NCBI GenBank assembly: GCA_034722245.1
Contig: JAYENT010000019.1
Location: forward strand, 10,425-74,424
Origin: Chloroflexota bacterium
Lineage (GTDB): Bacteria; Chloroflexota; Anaerolineae; UBA1429
Length of the DNA stretch: 64,000 nt
Direction of reading: 5' to 3'
Positions within the stretch are counted from its first letter, which is position 1. Every line of letters begins with the position of its first letter. Positions 8,896 through 63,543 of this stretch are shown one piece after another. The translations under genes were made by a program, and so were the position numbers. The notes under the pieces are model-generated. The model was not told the DNA's origin. It did not search any database and was given only the letters and a program-made list of their open reading frames with translations.

Positions 8896-10131
8896 CTATT
8901 CACCGACCCGCGCCCGCATCACCGCCCCCAGACGCTTGATGCCCTCCCGTATCGTGTCACATGGGACGCTGGCGAAAGAGAGGCGCAGCGTGTTGTCCCC
9001 ACCGCCATTGGCATAGAAGGGGCCTCCGGGGATAAAGGCCACCTTTTTCTCCGCGGCCTCTCGCAGGAGCTCTGCCGCGTCCATGCCCTCGGGCAGGGTC
9101 ACCCAGAGAAAAAGGCCCCCCTCAGGGCGCGTGTAGCGGACACTCTTCGGGAAGTACTCTTCGATGGCCTCGCACATGGTGTTCCGGCGCGCCAGATAGG
9201 TATCGCGAATGCGCTGCTCCTGCGCCGGGAGCCATCCCCGCCGCATAAACTCGTAAGCCATGGTCTGAGCCAGGGCGTTGGTATGCAGGTCGGCTCCCTG
9301 TTTGGCCATCACGAATTGCTCGGCAATCTCTGGCGGACACACGGCCCAGGCCAGCCGTAGGCCCGGCGCTAGGGTCTTGGAAAAAGTCCGCAGATAGATG
9401 ATATCCCCCTTGACGTAGCCCGATTCCTCACCGTTCTCCGGATAGCGCGCCGCATCAATGGCCACAAGTGGAGCCAATGCCTCACCCGCGAAACGTAACT
9501 GACTATAGGGATCATCCTCCACGATGGGCACGCCCATGGAACTGGCGATCTCTACGACCTCTTCACGACGGGCCATGGACATGGTGACTCCCGTGGGATT
9601 ATGAAAGGTGGGCAACAAATACATGAACTTGGGATGCTTCTGCCTGATGATGGCCGGAAGTTGGTCCGCACACGCGCCTTCGCCATCGAGGGGCACAGTG
9701 GCAAATTCGACGCCATAGGCTCTGAAGGACTGCAGAGCACCGAGAAACGTTGGCTCCTCCACGATGATGGTATCCCCTTCGTCCAATAGGATGCGCCCCA
9801 CCAGATCAAGCCCCTGTTGCGCGCCACTGGTGATGACCACGTTCTCCTCCTTGCAGGGGATGCCCTCATCGGTCATGGCTTCCGCAAGGGTCTGGCGCAG
9901 ACGGTTGAACCCATCGGTGACGCCATACTGCAGCGATTCGCGAGGCATCTCCTGCAAAAGATAGTCACAGATCTCTCGGAATTGCTCCACAGGAAAGAGA
10001 TCAGCCTCTGGCCATCCTCCGGCCATGGAGATGAGGTCCGTAGATTGAATATTCTTGAAAATGTCGCGAATGACGGAGGTCGTCATCCACTCCAGACGGC
10101 GAGCATTCAGATTTTGCCAATCGACAGGCAT
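8896..10131 (-). CDS. PLP-dependent aminotransferase, class I/II fold (2-aminoadipate / aromatic aminotransferase-like)
   Basis: SFSKTLAPGLRLAW lysine motif, and NPTG. Confidence 0.85.
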   Translation of the reverse strand: MPVDWQNLNARRLEWMTTSVIRDIFKNIQSTDLISMAGGWPEADLFPVEQFREICDYLLQEMPRESLQYGVTDGFNRLRQTLAEAMTDEGIPCKEENVVITSGAQQGLDLVGRILLDEGDTIIVEEPTFLGALQSFRAYGVEFATVPLDGEGACADQLPAIIRQKHPKFMYLLPTFHNPTGVTMSMARREEVVEIASSMGVPIVEDDPYSQLRFAGEALAPLVAIDAARYPENGEESGYVKGDIIYLRTFSKTLAPGLRLAWAVCPPEIAEQFVMAKQGADLHTNALAQTMAYEFMRRGWLPAQEQRIRDTYLARRNTMCEAIEEYFPKSVRYTRPEGGLFLWVTLPEGMDAAELLREAAEKKVAFIPGGPFYANGGGDNTLRLSFASVPCDTIREGIKRLGAVMRARVGE

Positions 10132-10161
10132 TACACACTCCTTATAAATGCATGAAACTGC

Positions 10162-11091
10162 TCACGGATGCCTCTCCTCCTGAGACGCAAAATAGATCCC
10201 AACAAGAATACACACTCCCCCCGCCAAGGTGCTCAAGGGAGGCACCTCCCCCAAGACAAGAAAGGCCAGGAGCGTAGCGCCTACCGGCTCTCCCAGGAGG
10301 GCCAACGTGATAAACATGGGCGAGAAATGGGCCAGCGCCCAATTGAACGATGAGTGGCCCACTATTTGCGGAACCACTGCCAGCAACAGGAAGCATGAGA
10401 AGGTACGCAGATCATAGCCCAGAAGGGGGTGACTACGGAACACACAAAGGAGCAAAAGAATCGCACCGGCGATCCCGTAACACGGCCAGACATAGGCTAT
10501 GGTTGAGACCTTCCGACGCACAGCGCGCCCCAGCAGCATATAGGCCGATGCTCCCATGGCGCCCATCAAAGCCAAAACATCGCCCCACAACGCCTGGCCT
10601 GTGAACGCCCAGTCTCCATAACTGACGATGATGGTGCCCAGCATAGAGATGGCAACCGCCAGGACGGTGCGACGGCTCAATCGCTCCCCCAGCAGAAAAT
10701 GACCGGCCAAGCCCACAAATATGGGATTCGTGGAAACGAGGACGACTGAGCTGGCAACCGTCGTATAGGAAAGAGAGGAGACCCACGTGGCAAAGTGCGC
10801 GGCCAGGGCTACCCCCACCAGCACCAGCCGGCCCAAATCGTCACGGCCCAACTGGCGCCATTCGCGCCACCCGGAGGGCAAGGCCCAAGGGGTCAAGAGC
10901 AATGCGGCCAGGAGGAGCCGCCATGTGCCCACAACCAGGGGCGGCGCCTGCGTTAGACGGATGAGGATGGAGCCCGTGGAGACGGCCACGACGCCCAACC
11001 CAAGAACTGCCCAGCGATAGGAATGCCCCCGTACCCTCGCCGCCCCACCAGCGGCCCGCTGCGGCCCTGGGGATAGCTCGCGCGATTTCAT
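10162..11091 (-). CDS. EamA/DMT family transporter
   Basis: 10-TM duplication of EamA domains; start at ATG 11091 (MKSRELS). Confidence 0.75.
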   Translation of the reverse strand: MKSRELSPGPQRAAGGAARVRGHSYRWAVLGLGVVAVSTGSILIRLTQAPPLVVGTWRLLLAALLLTPWALPSGWREWRQLGRDDLGRLVLVGVALAAHFATWVSSLSYTTVASSVVLVSTNPIFVGLAGHFLLGERLSRRTVLAVAISMLGTIIVSYGDWAFTGQALWGDVLALMGAMGASAYMLLGRAVRRKVSTIAYVWPCYGIAGAILLLLCVFRSHPLLGYDLRTFSCFLLLAVVPQIVGHSSFNWALAHFSPMFITLALLGEPVGATLLAFLVLGEVPPLSTLAGGVCILVGIYFASQEERHP

Positions 11092-11218
11092 CGCCGGCCA
11101 CGCCCTCCTTGCCATCCACACCCCGGGCTCGCCCCACGCAAGTCTATTTCCGCGCGTCTATGGCGAGGATAGAAGACGAAGCAAAGGGATGTAAGGGCTA
11201 TCATAAGGCCATGAAAGG

Positions 11219-12094
11219 CTAGACTTCTCCCTCCACAATGCGCTCGTAAAGGGCTTGAAGTTCCTCTTCGGAGTAAAAGTGGATCACCAGCCTGCCTCCC
11301 TTGCTGGTCCGATAGAGCCTCACCTTAGTGCCCAGCGCATCGCGGAACTCGCCTTCCAAGGCCACCGTCTCGGGAGACCGCGTCCGCTCCTTCGGCTTGC
11401 TCTCTTTTGGGGAATGCACGCGACGGGCCAATTCTTCCGTCTGCCGCACGGAGAGGTTCCGCTCCAACACCTGCTGGAGCGCTTGAAGGCGGTCTTCTTT
11501 GGAATCCAGCATCAGCAGGGCGCGAGCGTGCCCCTCGGAGAGCCGGTTCGCAAGCAGGGCCTCCTTGACCTCCTCGGGCAATTGCAGAAGCCGCAGCGTG
11601 TTCGTCACACTGGCCCGGCTGCGTCCCACGCGCTCGGCGATGCGCTCATGCGTCAGGTCGAATTCCTCGGCCAACTGGGAATAGGCCTGCGCCTCCTCCA
11701 GAGGGTTCAGATCAGCCCGTTGTATATTCTCCACTAGAGCGAGTTCCAGCATCTCCTGCGGCGTAGCGTCCTTCACCATAACGTCCACGTGTTGTAAACC
11801 AGCCAGACGTGCAGCACGCCACCTTCTCTCGCCTGCGATCAACTGGTAGCGCTTGGGCTCCGAGGCATCCTCCCTTCCCGTCACTTCCTGTACCAGGAGC
11901 GGCTGTATCAACCCCACCTCTTTGATGGAGGCGGCCAACTCCCGGAGCGCTCCCTCGTCAAAGACACTGCGCGCCTGAAAGGGATTGGGCACGATGGCGT
12001 CTATATTCACCTTCTTGAGGCCCGGCACTGAGCCGCCAGAGGGTATGAGGGCCTCCAGCCCCTTGCCAAGCCCTCGCCTTCTCTTAGAAGCCAT
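11219..12094 (-). CDS. parB: Chromosome partitioning protein ParB/Spo0J
   Basis: ParB box GERRWRAA; HTH; C-terminal dimerisation domain. Confidence 0.9.
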   Translation of the reverse strand: MASKRRRGLGKGLEALIPSGGSVPGLKKVNIDAIVPNPFQARSVFDEGALRELAASIKEVGLIQPLLVQEVTGREDASEPKRYQLIAGERRWRAARLAGLQHVDVMVKDATPQEMLELALVENIQRADLNPLEEAQAYSQLAEEFDLTHERIAERVGRSRASVTNTLRLLQLPEEVKEALLANRLSEGHARALLMLDSKEDRLQALQQVLERNLSVRQTEELARRVHSPKESKPKERTRSPETVALEGEFRDALGTKVRLYRTSKGGRLVIHFYSEEELQALYERIVEGEV

Positions 12095-12132
12095 GACGCG
12101 TAGCCCCCACCCCCATAATCATCTCTCTTCCA

Positions 12133-12903
12133 TCAGTAATCATTGCCCAAGGCCATGATCTCCCGACACAGCGCGGCATAGGCCTTCCCCCCACTCGAGC
12201 AAGGTGCATAGCTGGATATCGGCTCTCCATAGCTTGGCGCCTCGCTGAGCCTCACGCTGCGCGGAATAATGGCCTCAAAAACGGCATTAGGAAACTGCTC
12301 CCGAACCTCCTCCACTACCTGACGAGACAGGTTAGTGCGCGCATCATACATAGTGAGGATCAGGCCGCGAACGATCAGATCGGGATTCAAGCTCTCGCGC
12401 ACCCGCTCAATGGTCTCCAGCAGTTGGGCCAGACCTTCTAAAGGGAGATACTCACATTGAACGGGGATCAGCACGCCGTCGGCCGCCACCAGCGCGTTTA
12501 CTGTCAGTATGCCCAGGCTGGGAGGCGTATCGACGAGAATGAAATCATACTGCGGCTCTATCTTCTGCAGCGCATCGCGCAGCCGGAACTCCCGCGCTGG
12601 CATATCGACCAACTCCACCTGGGCCCCCGCCAGGGACGGGGAAGAGGGAACAAGGTCCAGCCCAAAGCAGTTGGTCAGCGTGATGAGGCGCGAGATGGGC
12701 AAAGAATCTACAAAAAGATCATAGGACGAGCGCTCAAGGGAGCGCGTATCGACCCCCATGCTGGTGGTGGCATTGGCCTGGGGATCCACATCCACCAGTA
12801 AGACCCGTTTGCCCGCATTGGCCAGGTAGGCTCCAAGGTTCACGGCCGTGGTCGTTTTCCCGACCCCTCCCTTTTGGTTGGCCAGTGCATATATGCGGCT
12901 CAT
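12133..12903 (-). CDS. parA: Chromosome partitioning ATPase ParA/Soj
   Basis: Deviant Walker A KGGVGKTTT; start at ATG 12903 (MSRIYALANQKGG). Confidence 0.9.
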   Translation of the reverse strand: MSRIYALANQKGGVGKTTTAVNLGAYLANAGKRVLLVDVDPQANATTSMGVDTRSLERSSYDLFVDSLPISRLITLTNCFGLDLVPSSPSLAGAQVELVDMPAREFRLRDALQKIEPQYDFILVDTPPSLGILTVNALVAADGVLIPVQCEYLPLEGLAQLLETIERVRESLNPDLIVRGLILTMYDARTNLSRQVVEEVREQFPNAVFEAIIPRSVRLSEAPSYGEPISSYAPCSSGGKAYAALCREIMALGNDY

Positions 12904-12914
12904 ATCTCGGGATC

Positions 12915-13763
12915 CTATTCTCTCAGCCGGCCATGGCCCAGGCGCCACGCGATTTGTTCCCTTGAGGGCATGCCTCTAGCCCCAACGGTCTCGACGATGA
13001 ATGAAGCCGCAGCGTTGGCAAAACGGAGCGATTCCCGCACGTCCTGCGTCTCAAAGAAACGCACAAAATAGGCGGTCGCGAACACGTCCCCTGCGCCTGT
13101 CGAATCGACCTCCCTCACCTTGTAGGCGGGCATATGCACTACGTGCCCTCTATAGTACACGGTAGCGCCCTCTCGCCCCTGTGTCAAGACGAGATGATCC
13201 GTCTCAGATGCGTAGGGAGCCAGGCGCCGCGCATCGCCCTCCAGGTCCTCCAGGCTGAGCACCACCACATCCGCCACATGCAGGCCGCGCCTCGCCCCAT
13301 CCCACGCCGCATAAGAGACCAAACCATCCCCGTCCCAACGGCGTAGCCACCCCTGAAGCGTCAGGCCCAACAAGGAAGGCGAAAAGGCCTCCACGAGCCG
13401 CACGTCTACCTCTCGGGCTACAGGCCCCAGGTGGACGATAACCGCACGCTCCCAGGCCTCCGGCACATCCTCCCTTGCCAATGGAGTCGCCAGGGCCCGA
13501 ATGTACTGGCGGCGGCCCTGGGCCAAGTAAGTGTTCTCAAACGTCGTCGTCCGCTGTGCGGGCAAACGGTGCAAAGCGATAGAAGGTGCCCGCGCGAACA
13601 GAGGGTACTCTGGATCAGCGCTGGTGAGCACAGCGGTCTTGAGCCCAAGTCTGTGAGCCGTCAAGGCCGAATAGGTCGCTGTACCACCAGGCCGCAACGC
13701 GCCATCAGCCCCCACATCCCACGTGACGTGGCCTACAACCAAATACTCAGGAATCAGCAACAA
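12915..13763 (-). CDS. PfkB-family carbohydrate kinase
   Basis: DSTGAGDVFATAY C-terminal motif; ribokinase-like fold. Confidence 0.8.
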   Translation of the reverse strand: MLLIPEYLVVGHVTWDVGADGALRPGGTATYSALTAHRLGLKTAVLTSADPEYPLFARAPSIALHRLPAQRTTTFENTYLAQGRRQYIRALATPLAREDVPEAWERAVIVHLGPVAREVDVRLVEAFSPSLLGLTLQGWLRRWDGDGLVSYAAWDGARRGLHVADVVVLSLEDLEGDARRLAPYASETDHLVLTQGREGATVYYRGHVVHMPAYKVREVDSTGAGDVFATAYFVRFFETQDVRESLRFANAAASFIVETVGARGMPSREQIAWRLGHGRLRE

Positions 13764-13781
13764 GACAAAATCCCAGGCGCC

Positions 13782-14570
13782 CTACTTGGGGAATATCTGC
13801 ACCTTTCGGTCGTCGCCCTCTCCTGTACTCTCGGTATACACATCAGGGTCATTCCGCAGCGCGATGTGCACGATGCGGCGCTCATACGCAGGCATGGGTT
13901 CCAGCGTCGCGACCCGCCCCGTTTCGCGCACTTGGTCCGCCATGCGCTCGGCCAAAGCCTGCAGGCTTTCCTCGCGCCTGGCCTTGTAGCCATCGACATC
14001 CACAACCAGGTTAGGCCAGGTCTTGATCTCGCGATTGACGATGAGCCGCACCATGAATTGCAGGTCGCGAAGCGTCTCGCCGCGGCGCCCGATAAGGATA
14101 CCAAGCTCGTCGCCTACAACGTTCACGACCAAAGGCGAGACCTCGCCGGTTTCGGGATCAATCTCTCCGCCATGATCCACGACCTCGACCGCGGCCAGCA
14201 GCCCCATCTTGTCTATCAGATTGGTCAACACCTCACACGCGATATCCTCCAACTCTGGCGGATTTCGCTTCAAGGCTGGGGCGTAGGCCTCCTCCGCTTC
14301 TTCCACTCCAGTCTCCGCTTCGGGCTCGGCCTTCTCCTCTACAGCAACAGCCTGGCCTTCCTGCGCCTCTTCCGTAGGCTCCGCCCCGACTTTAACGGGT
14401 GGTGTTGAAACCCGAATGGCCACTTCACCCGTCTGAACTAGACCAAGGATGCTACGCGTGTTGTCCTTGATCACCTCGTAGTCAAGATCCTCGGGAGGCA
14501 CCCCAAGCTCGTAAGAGGCTTTCTTCAACGCCTCCTCAATTGTCTTTCCAGTATAATCGCTTTTCTGCAT
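13782..14570 (-). CDS. khpB: RNA-binding protein Jag/KhpB (Jag_N, KH, R3H)
   Basis: MQKSDYTGKTIEEALKKA... R3H GEGDDRKVQI; conserved position downstream of yidC. Confidence 0.85.
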   Translation of the reverse strand: MQKSDYTGKTIEEALKKASYELGVPPEDLDYEVIKDNTRSILGLVQTGEVAIRVSTPPVKVGAEPTEEAQEGQAVAVEEKAEPEAETGVEEAEEAYAPALKRNPPELEDIACEVLTNLIDKMGLLAAVEVVDHGGEIDPETGEVSPLVVNVVGDELGILIGRRGETLRDLQFMVRLIVNREIKTWPNLVVDVDGYKARREESLQALAERMADQVRETGRVATLEPMPAYERRIVHIALRNDPDVYTESTGEGDDRKVQIFPK

Positions 14571-14589
14571 TTTTCCCTTTTTCGTTCTA

Positions 14590-15441
14590 TCACGCCTCAT
14601 CTTCAGCATCGGGCATAGCCGGCCCTTCGATCTTTTCTATCACCCACTGCATAGCGATACCAACGATATTGGAGATGACGAAATAAATCGCCAATCCCGA
14701 CGCGAACTGCATGGTGAAATAGCCAAACATGAGAGGCATCATGAACTGCATCGTCTGATTCATGGACGCCTGTTGGGGATCCGAGGATGCTGGCGTCATC
14801 ATCTTTTGCTGAAGCCACATGGTCCCTGCAACCAGGACGGGCAACACAAAGGGCGTCGGGTCCGGCTTGGCCAGATCTAGCCACAAAAAGGTACTTTGCA
14901 GAGGCACGATCTTTGCGATAACGTCAAAGCTGGCATAGACGTTCTTGCCCAAATTCATCAGCTCCAAAGGTGTATCGGCCAGTATGCTGTTGATCGATTG
15001 ATACAGCGCAATCCAGATGGGGAACTGGATGAGAGTCGGAAGGCATCCCCCCAGAGGGTTCACCCCCGCCTCTTTGTACAGTTTCTGCTGCTCCTGCAAA
15101 AGCCTTTCCTTATCGCCGCCGTACTTTTCCTGCAGCTTGGACAACTTGGGCTGTAGTGCGGCCGTCTTTTTGCTCGTCCTGATCTGCCTGATCTGTAAGG
15201 GGAACGTGATTAAGCGCAGGCCAACCGTCAGGCCGGCGATGGCAACAACGAAACTCTCCCCCAGGTGAGCATAGAGAAACAATAGGAGGTTTAACATGGG
15301 ACGTATGAGCCCCTCGCGCCAGATAACTCCCCATCCAATCTGGAACCCCCCCAGGATCACCGCCCCAACGATAACCCATGTCAAGATGGATTTACGCAAT
15401 TGCTTGGCATCTATTTGCGGTCTGTTTGCTGCTCGTTGCAC
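14590..15441 (-). CDS. yidC: Membrane protein insertase YidC (short Gram-positive-type form)
   Basis: 60-kDa inner-membrane protein core (LPTLIQFPIWIALY, PLMFGYFT). Confidence 0.9.
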   Translation of the reverse strand: MQRAANRPQIDAKQLRKSILTWVIVGAVILGGFQIGWGVIWREGLIRPMLNLLLFLYAHLGESFVVAIAGLTVGLRLITFPLQIRQIRTSKKTAALQPKLSKLQEKYGGDKERLLQEQQKLYKEAGVNPLGGCLPTLIQFPIWIALYQSINSILADTPLELMNLGKNVYASFDVIAKIVPLQSTFLWLDLAKPDPTPFVLPVLVAGTMWLQQKMMTPASSDPQQASMNQTMQFMMPLMFGYFTMQFASGLAIYFVISNIVGIAMQWVIEKIEGPAMPDAEDEA

Positions 15442-20380: not shown

Positions 20381-21019
20381 AATCGCCCCCCCTTGTCCCG
20401 GCTCCCCCATCTCATTTTAAGCCCCATGTGCCGCCACGTCAATGGCTCCATCGCTGGTGATTACCCATAAGTCAAAGTCTCCTCAGGGAAGGAGTGATGG
20501 CTCGCGAAGGAGAGGGTAGCCGCGACAGCGAAGACACTGCCAATACCGGCCAGGAGGATGTAGGGCCCATCGCTATCCACGGGTAGGTCCAGTTTACCAC
20601 CCCCCAGACGGTGTAGCCATAGTACAGCCTGTGGAGGTCAAGTCTCGTCGGTATAATAGGCGAACAAAGCGGTCCCGAATTTCCTGTAAAAACGGCGACG
20701 TGAATCTAGTTCATTTGACTTGACACGGAGTATACGGACATTACCGTCCAAAAAGCCAGCTCACAATGCAACAGGGGTAACGATGTAGAAAATCGGAGGT
20801 GAAACGCCTCTGATGGGGTACCGGCAAGATCACAAATTCTACCAACACAACATGGAACCGAAACCCAATGGGGTCCCGGTCGCGCCCCTTTCGCTCCTAT
20901 AACGATGCACAAACCTGAGAAAACCTCGATCCTACCAGCAAGAGAATGCGGGTAGGAAAAGGGCTCCTACCCGCAAAACGTTCGATGCAAATATCGGGAT
21001 ATCGTTCTTCGCCAGATTT

Positions 21020-33860: not shown

Positions 33861-33882
33861 AAAGTGGAAGGAGAAGGCTCAC

Positions 33883-34662
33883 ATGCTGCTCTGCGTCGAT
33901 ATCGGTAATACGAACATCGTTATGGGCCTCTATGAGGGGAACAACCTCCTGAACCACTGGCGCGTAAGCACCGATCACAACAAAATGCCGGACGAATACG
34001 GTATGCTTTTTATCGACCTTTTGCGTCATGACGCCCTGGTCACCGAGGATATCGACGGCATCGTCCTGGCAAGCGTCGTTCCCCCTGTCACCGAGATATT
34101 TACAGAGATGTTGGAAAACTATGTGGGGGGGGAAATCCTCATCGTGGGCAGCGGCATCAGAACGGGCGTTGCCATACGCTATGACAACCCCCAGGAGGTG
34201 GGCGCCGATCGCGTCGTCAACGCCATAGCCACGTATCGCCACTACGGAGGGCCTGCATGTGTAATCGACTTTGGCACCGGTACCACCTTTGATGCCATCT
34301 CCACAAAGGGCGAATACCTGGGGGGTGCCATCGCCCCCGGTATTCGCATTGCCGCCGAGGCCCTTTTTCAGCGGACGGCCAAGCTGCCGCGCATTGATCT
34401 CATCCCTCCTGCAAAAACCATAGGCACCAATACAGCGGACTCGATGCGCTCCGGCATCCTCTACGGATATGTGGGGTTAGTGGAGGGCATGGTGGCACGG
34501 TTTCGACAGACGTTGGGGCCCGACATGCGCGTCATCGCCACGGGGGGATTTGCATCCATCATCGGCAGTGAGACGAAGGTGATCGAGCACGTCGATCCGT
34601 GGCTCACGCTCAAGGGCCTGCGCATCATCTACGACCTGAACAGGGAAAGAAAAAGAATATGA
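33883..34662 (+). CDS. coaX: Type III pantothenate kinase
   Basis: MLLCVDIGNTNIVMGL, DRVVNA, GTGTTFD. Confidence 0.9.
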   Translation: MLLCVDIGNTNIVMGLYEGNNLLNHWRVSTDHNKMPDEYGMLFIDLLRHDALVTEDIDGIVLASVVPPVTEIFTEMLENYVGGEILIVGSGIRTGVAIRYDNPQEVGADRVVNAIATYRHYGGPACVIDFGTGTTFDAISTKGEYLGGAIAPGIRIAAEALFQRTAKLPRIDLIPPAKTIGTNTADSMRSGILYGYVGLVEGMVARFRQTLGPDMRVIATGGFASIIGSETKVIEHVDPWLTLKGLRIIYDLNRERKRI

Positions 34663-56311: not shown

Positions 56312-56349
56312 ATGCACCCTTTTTGAGGGCGAGCGGTATTCCTCAGTCC

Positions 56350-56655
56350 CATATAAAGCGGAATACACTTTGTGTATTCCCCATCCGTCCAACTCGGAAT
56401 AGTGCTCCAACCTACGATTGCCATGCCGTTCCCCGTGTCAAAGGTGTGGAGAATTGCGCGGCAATTCTCCGAGGGAATAGGCTACGCCTTTAGGGACTTT
56501 CACATATAAAGCGGAATACACTTTGTGTATTCCCCATCCGCCCAACTCGGAATAGTGCTCCAACCTACGATTGCCATGCCGTTCCCCGTGTCAAAGGTGT
56601 GGAGAATTGCGCAGCAATTCTCCGAGGGAATAGGCGTAGCCTATTCCCCCTTCGC
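56350..56655. repeat. Two head-to-tail copies of a 153-bp palindrome-dense unit (copy 1 56350-56502, copy 2 56503-56655)
   Basis: About 134 bp are shared with 2 mismatches. Each unit contains GGAATACAC-ttt-GTGTATTCC and GGAGAATTGC-gcN-GCAATTCTCC perfect hairpins. Copy 2 adds GGAATAGGC-gta-GCCTATTCC. Confidence 0.8.
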
Positions 56656-56719
56656 CTTCCACGCCCACTTGTGCTATCATGATTATGTAGCACCACGCCG
56701 AGAAGGGGGAATGTTCCTG

Positions 56720-58069
56720 ATGAACAGCAAACTAGGCTTCCACATCCAACGACGCCGACAAGGCTGGCCCAACGCCGTGGCCGACGCTCTGCCGGCCATG
56801 GTCAAGAGCCTGGAATGGCGCATCATCGACGATTGGGTGGCGGAGGAACAGACGGATGTGCAAAAGAAGGCGCGGGCCGGCAAATGGCAGGCGTATCACG
56901 TCTTTTTAGTGGGCCGCCATGTGACGCCCATCCAGCCCCTTGACCACCCACAAGCGTGCGCTCGCGCTTTTTGGAAAGGGATGCTGGAGGAGATGACGGC
57001 AGGAGACCACAGCAAGGAGGCCGAAACCCTGGAACGCCTGCGCCTTTTTGATGCCTGGGAGGGCTATAACGAGATCGGGACGGGCCCCGACATCGCCAAG
57101 TTGGGCCGCTTTGACGCCGCCCTGGCCCACTGCTTCCACGACAACGGCCTCAAGTATGCCTGTGGTGGCTTCAGCGTCACCAACCCCACCTTGGAGGAGT
57201 GGCCCCGATACTATGATGCCCTGCTGGAGGCAGCGGCGACCCAGGACGGCGAGATGCCCGACTTTTTGCACCTGCACGAATACTGGTACCCAGACCGCGA
57301 CTGGGATTCCCTGCTGAACGCGGAGGGCAAGATCGATCGTCGGCGGATGCGCAAGGCCACGCGGGGCTACATGTTGCATTGGCGCGAACTGTACCAGGAA
57401 CCGAACACGCCGGAGGAGATCAAGCTGCCCGTCATCATCTCTGAATGCGGTTGGGATCGAGGGGCGCCTCAGCAGGTAGGCTTTCGCGCTTCCCGTCGCT
57501 CCGATTTGGATTACCTTAGATGGTTGTTCTGGTACGATCAGGAACTCCAGACACCCCTGGATGGCAAGGACTATGTAGTGGGCGCGGCCATCTTTACCTA
57601 CGGCCATGCAAACCGCTGGGCCTCCTTCGAAATCGACCGCATGGAGGGGCATGACATCTTGGGCCCCCTGCGCGCCTACATGCGCGAAAGCAACCTCTTG
57701 CCGCACCCCCGGGACTGGGAGGAATTGCAGGAACCCGAGCCGGAGGTGCAAGAGACCCACTATCTGCTTCTGCCCCAGAAGAGCAGCCTCGCCTGGCGCC
57801 ACGCCCTGGATCGCTATCTTGACACCTTCAAAGTGACCAACGGACAATCGCTGGACGACGCCGTCCGCCTGGCGGCCCCAGAGCATCACATCACCCTGGT
57901 CGGAAGCGCCGACAGCGAACGGGGCGTGCCCCAGAACTGGGAAAAGGAGATCCATCGCCGCAACCCCGACGCCCTCGTGGATCGTATGGAAGCCCACAAC
58001 GTCAGAGAACTGCGCCGCATCGCCACGACCCGCGCCAAAAGGGGCGATCGCTATGGGGAACGAGAATAG
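56720..58069 (+). CDS. Cytoplasmic clan GH-A-like (beta/alpha)8 glycoside hydrolase with an unknown ~120-aa C-terminal domain
   Basis: Start at ATG 56720 (RBS GAAGGGGG; extended -10 TGCTATCAT at about 56671). The portion of track ORF 56525 upstream of this translates the repeat and is an artefact. Acid/base-like WEGYNEIG and nucleophile-like VIISECGWD motifs sit about 140 aa apart. Confidence 0.45.
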   Translation: MNSKLGFHIQRRRQGWPNAVADALPAMVKSLEWRIIDDWVAEEQTDVQKKARAGKWQAYHVFLVGRHVTPIQPLDHPQACARAFWKGMLEEMTAGDHSKEAETLERLRLFDAWEGYNEIGTGPDIAKLGRFDAALAHCFHDNGLKYACGGFSVTNPTLEEWPRYYDALLEAAATQDGEMPDFLHLHEYWYPDRDWDSLLNAEGKIDRRRMRKATRGYMLHWRELYQEPNTPEEIKLPVIISECGWDRGAPQQVGFRASRRSDLDYLRWLFWYDQELQTPLDGKDYVVGAAIFTYGHANRWASFEIDRMEGHDILGPLRAYMRESNLLPHPRDWEELQEPEPEVQETHYLLLPQKSSLAWRHALDRYLDTFKVTNGQSLDDAVRLAAPEHHITLVGSADSERGVPQNWEKEIHRRNPDALVDRMEAHNVRELRRIATTRAKRGDRYGERE

Positions 58070-58823: not shown

Positions 58824-58879
58824 ACGGAATACTTCTCCAGCCGCACACACGGGCGTCAACGCCCGTGCTACATAGTCAC

Positions 58880-58900
58880 GTCCCATGAATGGGACTTTTT
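58880..58900 (+). terminator. Intrinsic terminator after the nitroreductase gene
   Basis: GTCCCA-tgaa-TGGGAC followed by TTTTT; preceded by a second GC hairpin CACGGGCG-tcaa-CGCCCGTG (58848-58867). Confidence 0.5.
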
Positions 58901-59082
58901 CGCACACGTATACGGTCGGGTGATACGATAATACCCCAAGACCTCAAAAGCCCGCTTGAGCGGGCGCAACTATGTAGCGCTGTGGCTTTAGCCCGGCGCG
59001 GCCGGACGGCCAAGTTAACGCATATGCGTTACGAAGGATACATCATACATTTGTATGTCAACACTGTAAGGAGCCTTTGCAG

Positions 59083-61401
59083 ATGTCCGGAAATCTCGTC
59101 ATCGTAGAATCGCCAGCGAAGGCCAAGACCATATCCAAATACCTGGGCAGAGGATACCGCGTGCTGGCCTCGGTGGGACACGTGCGCGATCTGCCACCCA
59201 AGGAACTGGGCGTGGACATTGCGAACGGCTTTGCCCCCACATACCAAGTATCCAAGGGCAAAGGGGAGGTGATTCGTAAGCTAAAGGAGGCCGTCGGGGA
59301 GAGCGATCTGGTCTATCTGGCCATGGACCCCGACCGAGAGGGCGAGGCCATCGCCTGGCACGTGGGCGAGGTTACGGGCCTGACAGAGGGCAAGACGCGG
59401 CGCATCGCCTTCTACCAGGTGACCAAGAGGGCCGTCCAAGAGGCCCTGAAAAATCCCCGAGGCTTGGACCGCGACCTGATCGACGCCCAGCAGAGCCGCC
59501 GCGTGCTGGACCGCCTGGTAGGCTACAAGATCAGCCCCATCCTGAGCAGAACCATGCGCAAGCCGTTGTCCGCCGGCCGCGTGCAGTCCGTGGCTTTGCG
59601 CCTGGTGGTGGAGCGGGAGCGCGAGATCGAGGCCTTTGTACCCGAGGAATATTGGACGCTGGAGGCAGAGTTGCAGCGCCGCACCCAGAAGAAGGAGCGC
59701 TTCAAAGCCCATCTGCTCCGCATAAAGGGCGAGAAGCCACACCTGGGCAGCAAGGAGGAGATGGACGAGATACTGCCGGTCCTGTCCAAGGCCACCTATA
59801 CAGTAACCAAGGTGAAAAAGGGACAGCGCAGGCGAAATCCCTATGCCCCGTTCATCACCAGCACCCTGCAGACCGAGGCCTCGCACAGGCTGCACTTCTC
59901 CCCACAGCGGACCATGCGCCTGGCCCAGCAGTTGTACGAGGGCATCGAACTGGGCGAAGGGGCTGATGCTGAAACGGTTGGGCTCATCACCTATATGCGC
60001 ACCGACTCGCCCCACGTGGCCCCCGAGGCCCAGGAGGAGGCCCGGCGCTACATCTCCAAGCGGTGGGGAGAGGAATATCTGCCCAGCAGCCCGCCAGCCT
60101 ATCGCTCCACGTCCTCCTCCGCCCAGGAGGCCCACGAGGCCATTCGCCCTACCTCGGTATTCCGGACACCGAAAACTGTGCGCAAGCACCTGAACCGCAG
60201 CCAGGCGCGGCTCTACGAGCTCATCTGGAGGCGTTTCCTGGCCAGCCAGATGCAGCCCGCCCTCTATGCCACCATGAGCGTGGACATCGTGGCCGCCAAG
60301 GATTACCTATTCCGGGCCACGGGACGCCGCCTCATCTTCCCCGGCTTCCTCGCCGTTTATAAGGAGGGAAAAAGCGAGAAGGACAGCCAGTTCCTGCCTC
60401 CCCTCGAAAAAGGCGAGGTGGTAGACCTGCACAAACTCCTCCCAGAGCAGCACTTTACCCAGCCGCCCCCTCGCTACAGCGAGTCCACGCTCATCAAAGC
60501 CCTCAAGGGCAAAGGCGTGGGGCGCCCCTCCACCTATGCCAGCATCATCAGCGTGATCCAGCGTCGGCGCTACGTGACCAAGGAGGACGGCAGGCTCAAG
60601 CCCACCGACCTGGGCATAACGGTGTGCGACGCCTTGGTGGCAGCCTTTTCCAACATCATGGAGGTGGAGTACACGGCCAGGATGGAGGAGCAGTTGGACC
60701 ACGTGGCCGAGGGCAAGGTGGGCTATGAGGCGATGCTCAGCGCCTTTTACGGCGATTTGGAGCCCAAACTTGGCGCGGCTCCAGACATCATGGACGAGGC
60801 CATACAGCGATCCCTCAAGGCCAACCTCCCCGAATCGCTGCGCAACCGCAACTGTCCCCTATGCGGAAAGCCCCTCGTCGTGCGTGTCAGCAAGATGGGG
60901 CGCTTTTTGGGCTGCACGGGCTACCCCGAATGCCGCTACACCCTGGATATCAGCGATCCCGAGAATCCCCAAGAGACCGAGGACGAATTCGTCGAGGGGG
61001 AGAGATGTCCAAAATGCGGCGGGCGCATGAAAATCGTGCACTATGGTAACCGAACCTTTTTGGGATGCGAGAACTACCCAAAGTGCAAATACACGCGCCC
61101 CATCCTTAGCGAGCGCATCAAAAATCTGGCCGCCGAGACCGCCTGTCCCAAGTGTGGCCGCAAGCCCATGGAGCCCCGCAAGGGACGCTATGGCGAGTAC
61201 CTCTACTGCCCCGACTGCGAGGAGAACTTTTCTCTGCGCAAGCTGGGCCTAGACAAGGTAGAAAAGGTGGACATCCCCTGCCCGAAATGCGGCCACAGTC
61301 CCCTGGAAAAGCGCACCGGGCGCTACGGGCCCTACTACCACTGCCCGGCCTGCAAGGCCAACACCTCGGAGAAAGAGATGGCCCGTATTCGTGGGGAATA
61401 A
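59083..61401 (+). CDS. topA: DNA topoisomerase I with C-terminal C4 zinc-ribbon repeats
   Basis: ATG 59083 with RBS AAGGAG at 9 nt. Toprim (LVIVESPAKAKTI, DPDREGE); active-site region; three or four CxxC...CxxC zinc ribbons at the C-terminus. Confidence 0.9.
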   Translation: MSGNLVIVESPAKAKTISKYLGRGYRVLASVGHVRDLPPKELGVDIANGFAPTYQVSKGKGEVIRKLKEAVGESDLVYLAMDPDREGEAIAWHVGEVTGLTEGKTRRIAFYQVTKRAVQEALKNPRGLDRDLIDAQQSRRVLDRLVGYKISPILSRTMRKPLSAGRVQSVALRLVVEREREIEAFVPEEYWTLEAELQRRTQKKERFKAHLLRIKGEKPHLGSKEEMDEILPVLSKATYTVTKVKKGQRRRNPYAPFITSTLQTEASHRLHFSPQRTMRLAQQLYEGIELGEGADAETVGLITYMRTDSPHVAPEAQEEARRYISKRWGEEYLPSSPPAYRSTSSSAQEAHEAIRPTSVFRTPKTVRKHLNRSQARLYELIWRRFLASQMQPALYATMSVDIVAAKDYLFRATGRRLIFPGFLAVYKEGKSEKDSQFLPPLEKGEVVDLHKLLPEQHFTQPPPRYSESTLIKALKGKGVGRPSTYASIISVIQRRRYVTKEDGRLKPTDLGITVCDALVAAFSNIMEVEYTARMEEQLDHVAEGKVGYEAMLSAFYGDLEPKLGAAPDIMDEAIQRSLKANLPESLRNRNCPLCGKPLVVRVSKMGRFLGCTGYPECRYTLDISDPENPQETEDEFVEGERCPKCGGRMKIVHYGNRTFLGCENYPKCKYTRPILSERIKNLAAETACPKCGRKPMEPRKGRYGEYLYCPDCEENFSLRKLGLDKVEKVDIPCPKCGHSPLEKRTGRYGPYYHCPACKANTSEKEMARIRGE

Positions 61402-61403
61402 GC

Positions 61404-61852
61404 CGTCGCACCGCCCTAAAGAGGCGGTGCTGGGGGGATCCACTAGAGAAACCGCGAAGCAGTTCTCGGATCCCCTCGGAGAATTGCACAGCGATTCTGC
61501 CAAGGGATATGCATCGCATATCGCTCAACCAGCCCCACCTGTTCACGGTGGGGCAAAGGCCCAGCCTCCAACACCTGCGAATCGAATTCGCAGGCTGTTA
61601 CTGTTGGAAACTTGCTAAAGACAGGTGGGGAAAATGCTACGAATTTTCCCTGGCAGAATTGTGAGCGATTCTGCATCCTATCCAAAAGTTGCGACTACTC
61701 ACGTCGCAATTCTGATACGCGCTAGCCTGTTTCCAACAGGCTTGTTGTGATGGACGTGGATTTCAATCCTCGGCGCAGGGCGAGGGTCAACGTCTACATC
61801 TGGAATCTGGAAGATCGCGGCGTCGCATCGCCCTAAAGAGGCGGTGCTGGGG
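61404..61852. repeat. 32-bp direct repeats (61404-61435 and 61821-61852, 31/32 identical, each with a CACCGCC/GGCGGTG hairpin) flanking a 384-bp hairpin-dense non-coding segment
   Basis: CGTCGCA(C/T)CGCCCTAAAGAGGCGGTGCTGGGG appears twice, 417 bp apart. The interior carries at least 6 perfect 7-9-bp stem-loops and degenerate copies of the GAGAATTGC...GCAATTCTC motif. Confidence 0.6.
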
Positions 61853-61941
61853 AGTTGCTCTGCAATTCTTCACCCTCCTTGCCCGACGAGAACGCCTCTC
61901 TCCTACATGTGGGAGAGGGATTGGGGAGAGGGCAAACGAGT

Positions 61942-63543
61942 TCAACTCCTAAGCAGATGCCGTCCCGGGCGGGCGCCCGTGTGCTCGCTATCCTCCACCA
62001 CGGGCACGCCGTTCACCAGCACGTGTTCCACGCCTCGCACGTAGGCCTCGGGTTCTTCCACCGTAGAGACCTCTTCTAGGTTCTCATAGTCAAAGACTAC
62101 CACGTCGGCGAACTGGCCCCGGCGCAGCAGACCGCGATCACGCAGGCCAAAGTGAGTGGCGGGCATGCTCGTCATCTTGCGAATGGTCTCCTCCAGTCGC
62201 AAGATGCCCTTCTCGCGGACATAGTGGGTCAAATAGTGGGTCATTCCCGCAAAGTGTATGGGATGGGCACAGGGGATGGAGAAGAACGGGTCGGTGGTGC
62301 TGGTAAAGCCATCCACCCCCAGGTTAAAGAGGGGATGGGAGGCCATGGAAGCCAACAACTCTTCCGATTTGAGGTCGCCGATGACAAAGAGGGCGTCCAT
62401 GGCCTCGCCGTGGGCGGCCAGGATGTCGAAGCAGCATTCCCACTCGTCCTGGCCCCATTTCTCCGCGATCTCGGGGAAGCTCATGCCCACCAGTTCGGGG
62501 AAGAGGGAACTCTTACCCATGCGTACTCGGTGCCACTCGCCGCGATGAATGAAACGCCAGTAGCGGTCGCAGTCGGTGCGCAGCCGCTCCCGCACCTCGG
62601 GATCTTTGAGCATTTCTGCTGCCCGGGCCGGTCCCTCGGATTTGACCCAGGGAGGCAGGATGCCCGCTAGCTGACCGATGCCATCGGGAAAGGGGGTGGT
62701 GTCGGCCATGACGTCCAACCCCTCTTCCTCGCGGCTCCGCACCACCGTCTCCACGGCCCGCTCCCAGGCTCCCTCGGGCGCGCCCGAATTGTAGCGCACG
62801 TTCAAGTGCGATACCTCTCCCACTGTGCCACTTTGGCGCACGATGTGCAGGAACTCCTCGATGGCCTCTTGTAGATGGGCGTCCCGGTTGCGGATGTGGC
62901 TGGCATAAAGTCCGTCGTATTCTCCTACCACCTTGGCCAATGTCACCACCTCCTCGGTGGGCGCCGTGCGCCCCGGCTCGAATTCGAGCCCCGTGGATAT
63001 GCCCAGGGCGCCAGCGTCCATGGCCTCACGAAGGGAGCGCTTCATGGCCTCCATCTGCTCCTCCGTGGCCGAGGGGCCGATGATCCCCGCGCTCTCGCGC
63101 AGCGTGTTATGGCCCACCAGCCAGGCCAGGTTGCAGGAGGTGCCCATCTCCTCCACCACGTCCAGGTACTCCCCAAAGGAGGACCAGTCCACGGGACCAT
63201 CGTAGGAATAGTCGCGCAGCTTGCTCGCGATGGTGGACCGGGACGATTCCGTGAGGGGGGCGTTGCTGTAGCCGCAGTTGCCCACCACCTCGCTGGTCAC
63301 GCCCTGACGGATGGTGCTCTGGGCCAGGGGGTTGGCGTGGATGGACCAGTCGCTGTGGCTGTGGGCGTCGATAAAGCCTGGGGAGACGATCTTGCCTTGG
63401 GCGTCGATGACACGCGCCGCCTCGGCCCCCTCCAACCGTCCCACCTCGGCGATGCGCTCGCCCTCGATGGCCACGTCCGCCGGATAGGCCGGATTCCCCG
63501 TGCCATCGATCACCCAACCGTCGCGAATCAATACGTCCAACAT
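61942..63543 (-). CDS. N-acyl-D-amino-acid deacylase (D-aminoacylase) family amidohydrolase
   Basis: MLDVLIRDGWVIDGTG...; metal-binding HSH (GFIDAHSHSD). Confidence 0.85.
   Translation of the reverse strand: MLDVLIRDGWVIDGTGNPAYPADVAIEGERIAEVGRLEGAEAARVIDAQGKIVSPGFIDAHSHSDWSIHANPLAQSTIRQGVTSEVVGNCGYSNAPLTESSRSTIASKLRDYSYDGPVDWSSFGEYLDVVEEMGTSCNLAWLVGHNTLRESAGIIGPSATEEQMEAMKRSLREAMDAGALGISTGLEFEPGRTAPTEEVVTLAKVVGEYDGLYASHIRNRDAHLQEAIEEFLHIVRQSGTVGEVSHLNVRYNSGAPEGAWERAVETVVRSREEEGLDVMADTTPFPDGIGQLAGILPPWVKSEGPARAAEMLKDPEVRERLRTDCDRYWRFIHRGEWHRVRMGKSSLFPELVGMSFPEIAEKWGQDEWECCFDILAAHGEAMDALFVIGDLKSEELLASMASHPLFNLGVDGFTSTTDPFFSIPCAHPIHFAGMTHYLTHYVREKGILRLEETIRKMTSMPATHFGLRDRGLLRRGQFADVVVFDYENLEEVSTVEEPEAYVRGVEHVLVNGVPVVEDSEHTGARPGRHLLRS

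Follow-up and report, generated by a model that had tools for sequence, protein, structure and literature searches.

The topA gene of an uncultured Chloroflexota bacterium is followed by a 540-nt gap (61402-61941) that is exceptionally rich in hairpins, and this gap is the subject of our analysis. It lies in the window, by which we mean the whole 64,000-nt stretch of contig JAYENT010000019.1 that was analyzed, between two convergent genes: topA itself (59083-61401, plus strand, with a TAA stop codon at 61399-61401 and a nitroreductase gene upstream) and a D-aminoacylase gene (61942-63543, minus strand), which runs towards topA together with a gene for dihydrodipicolinate synthase (DHDPS). The topA product is 100% identical to an NCBI protein annotated as 'type I DNA topoisomerase [Chloroflexota bacterium]', and identity to the topA of the nearest species-representative genome is just 63-66%. 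The gap contains two direct copies of a 32-nt palindrome, here called R, which bracket a non-coding segment. As we argue below, the gap is probably (at about 60%, in our estimate) a mosaic of short dispersed palindromic units resembling repetitive extragenic palindromes (REPs), comparable in its make-up to the bacterial interspersed mosaic elements (BIMEs) of Escherichia coli.

The first copy, R1, occupies positions 61404-61435 of the plus strand and begins 2 nt past the topA stop, not 4 nt as an earlier reading made from the sequence alone had it; the second, R2 (61821-61852, plus strand), follows head-to-tail and is confirmed in an independent Logan contig (L002). Both read CGTCGCA(C/T)CGCCCTAAAGAGGCGGTGCTGGGG, with the C/T as their one difference, and both fold into a CGTC head, an 8-bp stem (GCACCGCC/GGCGGTGC), a 7-nt loop (CTAAAGA in R1) and a TGG(GG) tail. 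The sequence-only reading was thus right about the repeat and its hairpin, the stem being one base pair longer than the 7 bp that it gave. The C-to-T change in R2 produces a G.T pair in the stem, and the stem of R1 starts 6 nt after the topA stop. At 32 nt and -16.6 kcal/mol, this hairpin has the dimensions of a REP, that is, a short (~20-40 nt) imperfect palindrome. The copies are in direct orientation, 417 nt apart from start to start, and enclose 385 bp (384 bp in the earlier count). With up to three mismatches allowed, R matches exactly twice in the 64 kb and never in 100 shuffles, and a covariance model scores R1 at 53.8 bits and R2 at 49.9 bits. R does not qualify as an intrinsic terminator, since no U-run follows it: R1 and R2 are followed by GGGG, and the copies in relatives by CATCAC. 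Canonical terminators, with a hairpin and a T-run, are found in this genome at 30561 and 47359. We dropped the idea that the 3' end of topA had been duplicated upstream of R2, similarity not extending past 32-41 nt. Resemblances of the loop (CUGAAGA/CUAAAGA) to a hammerhead core, the lambda boxB or a tRNA-Phe anticodon arm were dropped as well, because the strands flanking the loop pair together, the window has A for G, and no test supports them.

R is not private to this site and appears to be one unit of a dispersed palindromic family, its dispersal being judged from the one locus of the window and from related contigs. Altogether there are five full and two half copies at three distinct sites (the topA 3' end, upstream of DHDPS, and the 3' end of a TypeISP_C-domain gene) in three related genomes. 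All of them are intergenic, and three sit 2 nt past a stop codon, behind two unrelated genes, in the register TAR-GC-YGTC-stem. In the relative represented by contig L112, whose aminoacylase DNA is 88.5% identical, an R that is 97% identical lies 2 nt from the stop of the TypeISP_C-domain gene (TAG-GC-TGTC-stem) and is fused to CATCAC and to a second type of unit. This unit, G (GTAGGTCGGAAC-N3-GTTCCGACC), has a GTAG head (GTGG in one copy), a 9-bp stem and a 3-nt loop, and four copies with compensatory stem variants occur in 1.5 kb of L112. G lies outside 61404-61852, being found just past the window end and in relatives, with all copies seen in one orientation. The copy past the window end is seen in L002, from a near-identical strain, where half an R, CATCAC and a complete GTAG palindrome (GTAGGTCGGAAC-GCT-GTTCCGACC) lie upstream of DHDPS, ~650 nt beyond the end of the window. 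A 35-mer at this junction (CTGAAGAGRCGGTGCTGGCATCACGTAGGTCGGAA) is 97% identical (E = 1.4e-11) to the junction that follows topA in another relative, L083, at a non-orthologous position.

The 3' end of topA could be compared directly with that of relatives whose topA is 87-88% identical (contigs L083, L084 and L085); L085 ends inside topA, so the 3' side is known from L083 and L084. In L083 (topA 88% identical), R follows the topA stop in the same register as in the window, and a second, direct copy lies 84 nt downstream. The filling between these copies is 54 nt long, as against 385 nt in the window, and consists of CATCAC, a fragment of a GTAG-headed palindrome and half an R. The second R of L083 and R2 of the window share the 5' flank AAGATCGYGG. 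In L084 there is no R; instead a different hairpin, P (GGGAATAGGC-N3-GCCTATTCCC), overlaps the topA stop and is followed by a GTAG unit and then by a Fic-type gene. The orthologous site hence holds R, 385 nt and R in the window, R, 54 nt and R in L083, and P plus G in L084, and the 385-bp core is present in neither of the two relatives whose contigs extend past topA. R variants are specific to each genome, since both window copies carry CTAAAGAGG and both L083 copies CTGAAGAGA; this indicates that R has probably been homogenized or re-copied within each genome, and speaks against an old duplication left to drift. A stable hairpin within 6 nt of the topA stop is kept in three relatives, in the form of two unit types, which is the best hint of selection that we have and suggests that it may act on the 3' end of the topA mRNA. 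We dropped the notion that the topA 3' end harbours a conserved element: in Chloroflexota that are less closely related, topA is followed by plain terminators of the hairpin-plus-T-run type, and scanning ~1 Mb from 80 other topA loci with the R covariance model gave no match.

Other searches were equally empty: the exact R 24-mer has no match in one genome per species, the R pattern none in viral contigs, and the whole gap none among plasmids and phages; a literature search for sequence words returned only a chance human match. Metagenome matches to the R pattern were not used as homology, three of them being coding (peptide RPEEAVLG), one probably lying in an open reading frame (ORF), and the rest being largely forced by the pattern. 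Thirteen Joint Genome Institute (JGI) metagenome contigs (L086-L089, L092, L096, L098, L100-L103, L106 and L107) carry a low-GC (41-51%) palindromic repeat family. Its centre, CACCGCTCTAAAGAGRCGGTGCTGG, is identical to R at 25 of 26 nt, a similarity selected by the search pattern, so that homology is unproven. On its flanks are CACCGNTCTAAAGAN and CCARCACC units, and in two contigs it is nested in GTAGCCCAA...TTGGGCTAC arms; the one contig of this family assigned to a taxon is from Candidatus Poribacteria (ComEC 76% identical).

The 385-bp filling, for its part, does not look like one element; it appears to be a patchwork of E, P, H6 and H10-H11 units. Following the plus strand from topA, the first is H2 (61432-61476), a nested hairpin, GGGGGGATCC...GGATCCCCT, around a smaller stem (-21.2 kcal/mol), of which no copy was found elsewhere. 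It is followed by a two-hairpin module, E-P (61477-61542), composed of the hairpin E1 (GGAGAATTGC-ACA-GCGATTCTGC, 61478-61500), a P-like hairpin (AGGGATATGC-ATC-GCATATCGCT, 61503-61525) and the tail CCAGCCCCACCTGT; E- and P-type hairpins have a 10-bp stem and a 3-nt loop. This module is a diverged copy of a better-preserved one on the plus strand of the lpdA-downstream gap (56600-56672), with perfect E and P hairpins and the tail CCACGCCCACTTGT. Over 66-72 nt, the two align with a score of 51 against a shuffled mean of 18.4 (z = 11), and 0 of 500 shuffles did as well. H5 (61532-61554, plus strand) has a perfect 8-bp stem and a 7-nt loop (GCCCCACC-TGTTCAC-GGTGGGGC). The H6 module (61563-61600, plus strand), with H6 itself, CCTGCGAAT-CGA-ATTCGCAGG, at 61574-61594, has a homologous stretch in the relatives' gap between isochorismatase and oxidoreductase genes, 87% identical in L112 (7522-7552) and L113 (7330-7366).

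H7 (61628-61650, plus strand) again has a 7-nt loop on a perfect 8-bp stem (GGGAAAAT-GCTACGA-ATTTTCCC), and E2 (61652-61674, plus strand) is a degenerate E hairpin that uses G.U pairs, GCAGAATTG-TGAG-CGATTCTGC, and shares direct repeats with 61473-61500. H9 (GTTGCGAC-TACTCAC-GTCGCAAT, 61688-61710) belongs to the minus strand, on which it is followed by CTTTTGG; this terminator-like site (61709-61689), the only one in the gap, is a candidate terminator of the aminoacylase operon. A 59-nt plus-strand module (61724-61782), made of H10 (AGCCTGTT-TCC-AACAGGCT), TGTTGTG and the start of H11, recurs in a gap of L112 (10032-10090, 90-91% identity, E = 1e-16), where its sequence is kept and the pairing of H11 is not. 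E3 (GGGGAGTTGC-TCT-GCAATTCTTC, 61849-61871, plus strand) overlaps the tail of R2. Finally, the flank by the aminoacylase stop (61886-61941) holds an imperfect hairpin, CCTCTCTCC/GGGAGAGG, and is weakly like the relatives' post-aminoacylase sequence, with which it has only a GGAGAGGGAT-type motif and the ~6 nt directly after the stop in common.

The perfect stem-loops listed in the sequence-only reading are present, save that an arm written there as AATTGCGAC reads AGTTGCGAC and forms seven Watson-Crick pairs and one G.T. The motif that it had seen in common with the tandem repeat at 56350 is also there, GGAGAATTGC-N3-GCAATTCTCC recurring at 61478-61500 (two substitutions), at 61849-61871 (three substitutions) and more loosely at 61652-61674, and the tie between the gap and that locus is real and larger than first described. 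The P hairpin at 56626 is moreover identical (26/26) to the hairpin that overlaps the topA stop in L084, and between the window and L085 the P stem shows compensatory changes (GGGAATAGGC versus GGGGATATGC). Hairpins at 95-117 of L002, 56626-56648 of the window and 8278-8300 of L085 have different 10-bp stems around a common centre, GC-GTA-GC (GCGTAGC, which contains GTAG); they may be one family with covarying stems.

The hairpin richness described earlier is borne out by folding, which goes far beyond both shuffles and controls from the window. Against shuffles, the 540-nt gap reaches z-scores of -9.1 to -9.6 on the plus strand and -7.1 to -8.4 on the minus strand, with folding energies of -249.6 and -232.7 kcal/mol, respectively. 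Six other intergenic regions of the window score +0.8 to -3, one with a plain terminator -6.7, and coding regions +1.4 to -3.4. The only other gap of comparable structure is 56312-56700, which houses the 153-bp tandem repeat. Such an extreme and nearly strand-symmetric excess is as expected for DNA palindromes. The enclosed segment is also devoid of a credible ORF, as first noted: ORFs of 75 and 80 aa are present with nothing in their support, and no small ORF of the gap codes for a credible product or for a hydrophobic peptide of the toxin type. Neither tRNA nor tmRNA genes were found, and the gap has no sigma-70-like promoter. At the gathering score, Rfam 15 returns no hits in the window and 18 related loci, and at E <= 10 just two chance-level hits. 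The main stems contain ~8 internal G.T and no A.C pairs on the plus strand when counted by eye, and a strict stem finder scores just 2. We rejected this G.U strand asymmetry as proof of RNA function, as it is suggestive only and the 56312-56700 gap is biased the opposite way. Two other long gaps, 20411-21019 (609 nt) and 33861-34598 (738 nt), show no Rfam hit, no folding excess (z ~ -1) and no ORF of at least 70 aa in the greedy ORF set.

The gap is also a junction of rearranged gene orders. Close relatives, represented by five contigs with aminoacylase DNA 88.5% identical, have a convergent isochorismatase gene 8 nt after the aminoacylase gene, in the order rplL-DHDPS-aminoacylase, and their topA is elsewhere; topA is likewise missing next to the aminoacylase gene in more distant relatives (77% identical protein). 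With a different gene after the aminoacylase in close relatives, the gap falls on a synteny breakpoint. On the upstream side, the window and L085 have the same gene order up to lpdA and then differ. At 56719-58069, where L083-L085 carry a 239-aa S-adenosylmethionine-dependent methyltransferase, the window has an ORF of ~450 aa without a Pfam match, a gene replacement beside the repeat-rich gap.

The nitroreductase-topA gap measures 259 nt in the window and 48 nt in three relatives, an alignment of a filled with an empty site that reveals a hairpin-module insertion of ~211 nt (58843-59053, plus strand), missing from those relatives. Part of it (58846-58897) is 85% identical over 52 nt to a portion of a ~150-nt dispersed repeat of L112, modules of which occur in the insertion in two orientations. 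In L112 itself (9823-10343 and 10996-11399), this multi-hairpin repeat is present in two copies, each ending in a GTAG palindrome, around a PIN/DUF2281 toxin-antitoxin pair. After lpdA, a 153-bp tandem duplication (56350-56635) comprises 1.9 copies that are 98% identical. Its distal junction lies inside the P hairpin, which reads GGGAATAGGC-TAC-GCCTTTAGGGA in copy 1, where the right arm has been replaced and the loop is inverted, and GGGAATAGGC-GTA-GCCTATTCCC in copy 2; this looks like the outcome of hairpin-mediated template switching. Given the module gains in the nitroreductase-topA, topA-aminoacylase and lpdA gaps, all three gaps around topA have expanded in this genome. No replication origin or terminus is placed at the gap, an idea that was dropped for want of a GC-skew switch nearby. 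The genes parB, parA and yidC lie together at 11219-15441, an arrangement typical of the surroundings of a chromosomal replication origin, with no clear GC-skew switch in the window.

These properties are best understood by comparison with known systems. Known REPs have GTAG or CGTC/TGTC heads and stems with G.T pairs; they occur in Chloroflexi, are concentrated behind genes and between convergently oriented ones, and differ from one relative to the next (PMC3733652). As in the REPs and BIMEs of E. coli and Proteobacteria, the gap is built of 20-40-nt imperfect intergenic palindromes with G.T pairs, of several unit types in variable mosaics, the units often being just a few nucleotides from a stop codon and favouring gaps that follow genes or separate convergent ones; the number and mix of units likewise vary at the same site in related genomes. 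It differs from them in the low copy number within the window, in the lack of recognizable spacer motifs of the integration host factor or gyrase type, and in its host, an uncultured member of the Chloroflexota. The inverted pairing with typed spacers (20-100 nt) of BIMEs, and of REPINs (REP doublets forming hairpins), is not seen: R units are head-to-tail, 385 nt apart in the window (417 nt from start to start) and again direct, 84 nt apart, in L083. What is present is a BIME-like mosaic of several unit types, without alternating orientation in the window and L083. With the CGTC-tagged REPs described by Di Nocera et al. 2013 (PMC3733652), R shares a CGTC head (in L112 it is TGTC, which the paper lists as a variant), an 8-bp stem, a 3-nt unpaired tail and the lack of a known dedicated transposase; its TGG tail, where those have CCA, sets it apart. 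Unit G resembles the GTAG REPs and REPINs that are mobilized by REP-associated tyrosine transposases (RAYTs), and that have been reported in Chloroflexi (Thermomicrobium roseum), in its GTAG head, 9-bp stem, 3-nt loop, several nearby copies and compensatory variants. It differs in lying outside the interval and in having one orientation instead of inverted pairs.

Several observations weigh against the interpretation of the gap as a mosaic of REP-like units. Among the 59 window ORFs scanned with Pfam, no transposase, integrase or RAYT/Y1_Tnp was found. In the 64-kb window, the R covariance model detects no additional copy, leaving one locus only, and R was not seen in ~12 kb of the relative L085. 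The CGTC head is not retained in L083, where it reads TATC and CGTG. The 7-nt loop and GC-rich stem start of R depart from the described CGTC families (loops of 4-5 nt, stems starting with AT), as does the head-to-tail pair, an arrangement that is rare among described REP dimers, the CGTC families forming head-to-head ones (PMC3733652). The plus-strand bias in G.T pairs is weak over the whole region (18-21 versus 13-14). Finally, 117 nt of the gap (61544-61660) are spanned by the assembly of this metagenome-assembled genome (MAG) alone.

Of the alternatives, the one that survives best, which we nevertheless consider unlikely, is a single non-autonomous element of ~417 bp, similar to a cassette or to a miniature inverted-repeat transposable element (MITE), that entered at the topA terminator hairpin and either duplicated this hairpin or carried an R copy at one end next to an existing R. 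A direct repeat does bracket non-coding DNA, as the sequence-only reading had proposed in suggesting a cassette, and the fillings do differ between relatives (385 nt in the window, 54 nt in L083, none in L084). There is also a clear filled-versus-empty site 2.5 kb upstream in the same genome, and Logan contigs break inside the putative element. However, a target duplication of 32 nt would be far longer than those of transposons, and the 32-mer is not the target duplication of one recent insertion, because L083, too, has the pair of R copies along with the flank on the 5' side of the second. Terminal inverted repeats are absent from the ends, no second 385-bp core was found in the window, relatives, plasmids or phages, and modules of the core occur separately elsewhere. 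MITEs such as the Correia elements of Neisseria and the Rickettsia palindromic elements are likewise non-coding, structured and dispersed, and they too lie at gene ends and can lengthen intergenic DNA, which is also how the 211-nt insertion at 58843-59053 behaves, whereas 61404-61852 has neither terminal inverted repeats nor short target duplications, and no second full-length copy was found. Nor is it a CRISPR (clustered regularly interspaced short palindromic repeats) array, there being two repeats and one spacer of 385 nt where an array has at least three repeats at regular 25-75-nt spacing, or an integron attC cassette, since R is 32 nt long, short of the 55 nt or more of an attC site, and has no GTTRRRY boxes and the window has no integrase.

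Quite unlikely, in our view, is that the gap is a graveyard of intergenic pieces left over from an L112-type segment, the genes of which (isochorismatase, two oxidoreductases, a toxin-antitoxin pair and TypeISP_C) were deleted when topA joined the aminoacylase gene. Counterparts of H6, H10-H11 and R do lie in successive gaps downstream of the L112 aminoacylase, oriented alike relative to it and with identities of 87-97%, near the coding identity of 88.5%, and a weak remnant of the relatives' flank is found by the aminoacylase stop. The order is not collinear, however, being, from R towards the aminoacylase, R1, H6, H10-11 and R2 in the window and R, H10-11 and H6 in L112; in addition, the R that follows topA in L083 cannot derive from an L112-type segment, and the E-P module has its counterpart in the lpdA gap and not in L112.

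We regard an assembly artefact, in which the contig joins two loci in a repeat-rich stretch and R1 and R2 bracket nothing real, as very unlikely. Independent Logan contigs, 31-mer assemblies of a near-identical strain (3 SNPs, i.e., single-nucleotide polymorphisms, in 2.7 kb), stop at 61543 (L001), one base past the E-P module, and start again at 61661 (L002), inside the hairpin E2. Nothing independent spans the 117 nt in between, a search through a 77-aa ORF having found no contig that does, and gene order on both sides is unlike that of all relatives. Against this, a 31-mer assembly such as Logan is interrupted by every repeat or strain variant, none of the 31-mers in the gap is found a second time in the window, the join is not through R, and repeat-rich rearrangement junctions are biologically expected. 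The two breaks suggest either more copies elsewhere in the genome or strain variation within 61544-61660. A structured non-coding RNA gene of ~420-470 nt on the plus strand, bounded by R hairpins, which the sequence-only reading had put forward, is the most improbable explanation of all: folding is extreme and stronger on the plus strand, where most mismatches inside the main stems are G.T, but there is no Rfam match and no promoter-like site, the sequence is not conserved in relatives with topA 87-88% identical (two lack the core altogether), its pieces recur as separate modules at unrelated intergenic sites, L112 keeps the sequence of H10-H11 without the pairing of H11, and the whole structure is made up of local palindromes, one after another and independent of each other, each folding on either strand.

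We therefore return to a mosaic of REP-like units, with which a repeat-bounded, non-coding, hairpin-rich stretch sharing motifs with the 56350 locus is retained from the sequence-only reading, without the new RNA or the single cassette. That reading had itself named a REP element as what would make the 32-mer ordinary, and this is essentially what the evidence shows. The units would be transcribed as part of the topA 3' untranslated region, their hairpins forming in topA read-through RNA. There, R1 and the hairpins that follow could shield the mRNA 3' end from 3'-to-5' exonucleases, and they could dampen read-through towards the convergent operon. REPs of E. coli are reported to stall terminating ribosomes when they lie within 15 nt of a stop codon (PMC12306157), and R1, whose stem 6 nt past the stop is inside this distance, may by analogy slow terminating ribosomes. 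New copies would arise by copying of units, through REP-type single-strand transposition, template switching or gene conversion, and presumably also by local duplication, of which the 153-bp tandem duplication at 56350 is an example. To our knowledge, no mobilizing enzyme has been described for CGTC-type REPs. That R is specifically a 3'-end module of a CGTC-type REP system, set down or selected in a fixed register after the stops of unrelated genes, is a doubtful proposition to which we give low odds. The 25-nt core of R (CACCGCYCTRAAGAGRCGGTGCTGG) is also the centre of an abundant palindromic repeat of freshwater Candidatus Poribacteria; were this link real, it would suggest a cross-phylum hairpin recognized by a conserved protein.

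REP-like repeats have been well studied in Proteobacteria and hardly at all in Chloroflexota. Related genomes with different unit mixes at one site, together with the comparison of a filled and an empty site, would provide raw material on how such units spread. Repeats of this type mark rearrangement junctions and break short-read assemblies, which makes them relevant to the contiguity of MAGs.

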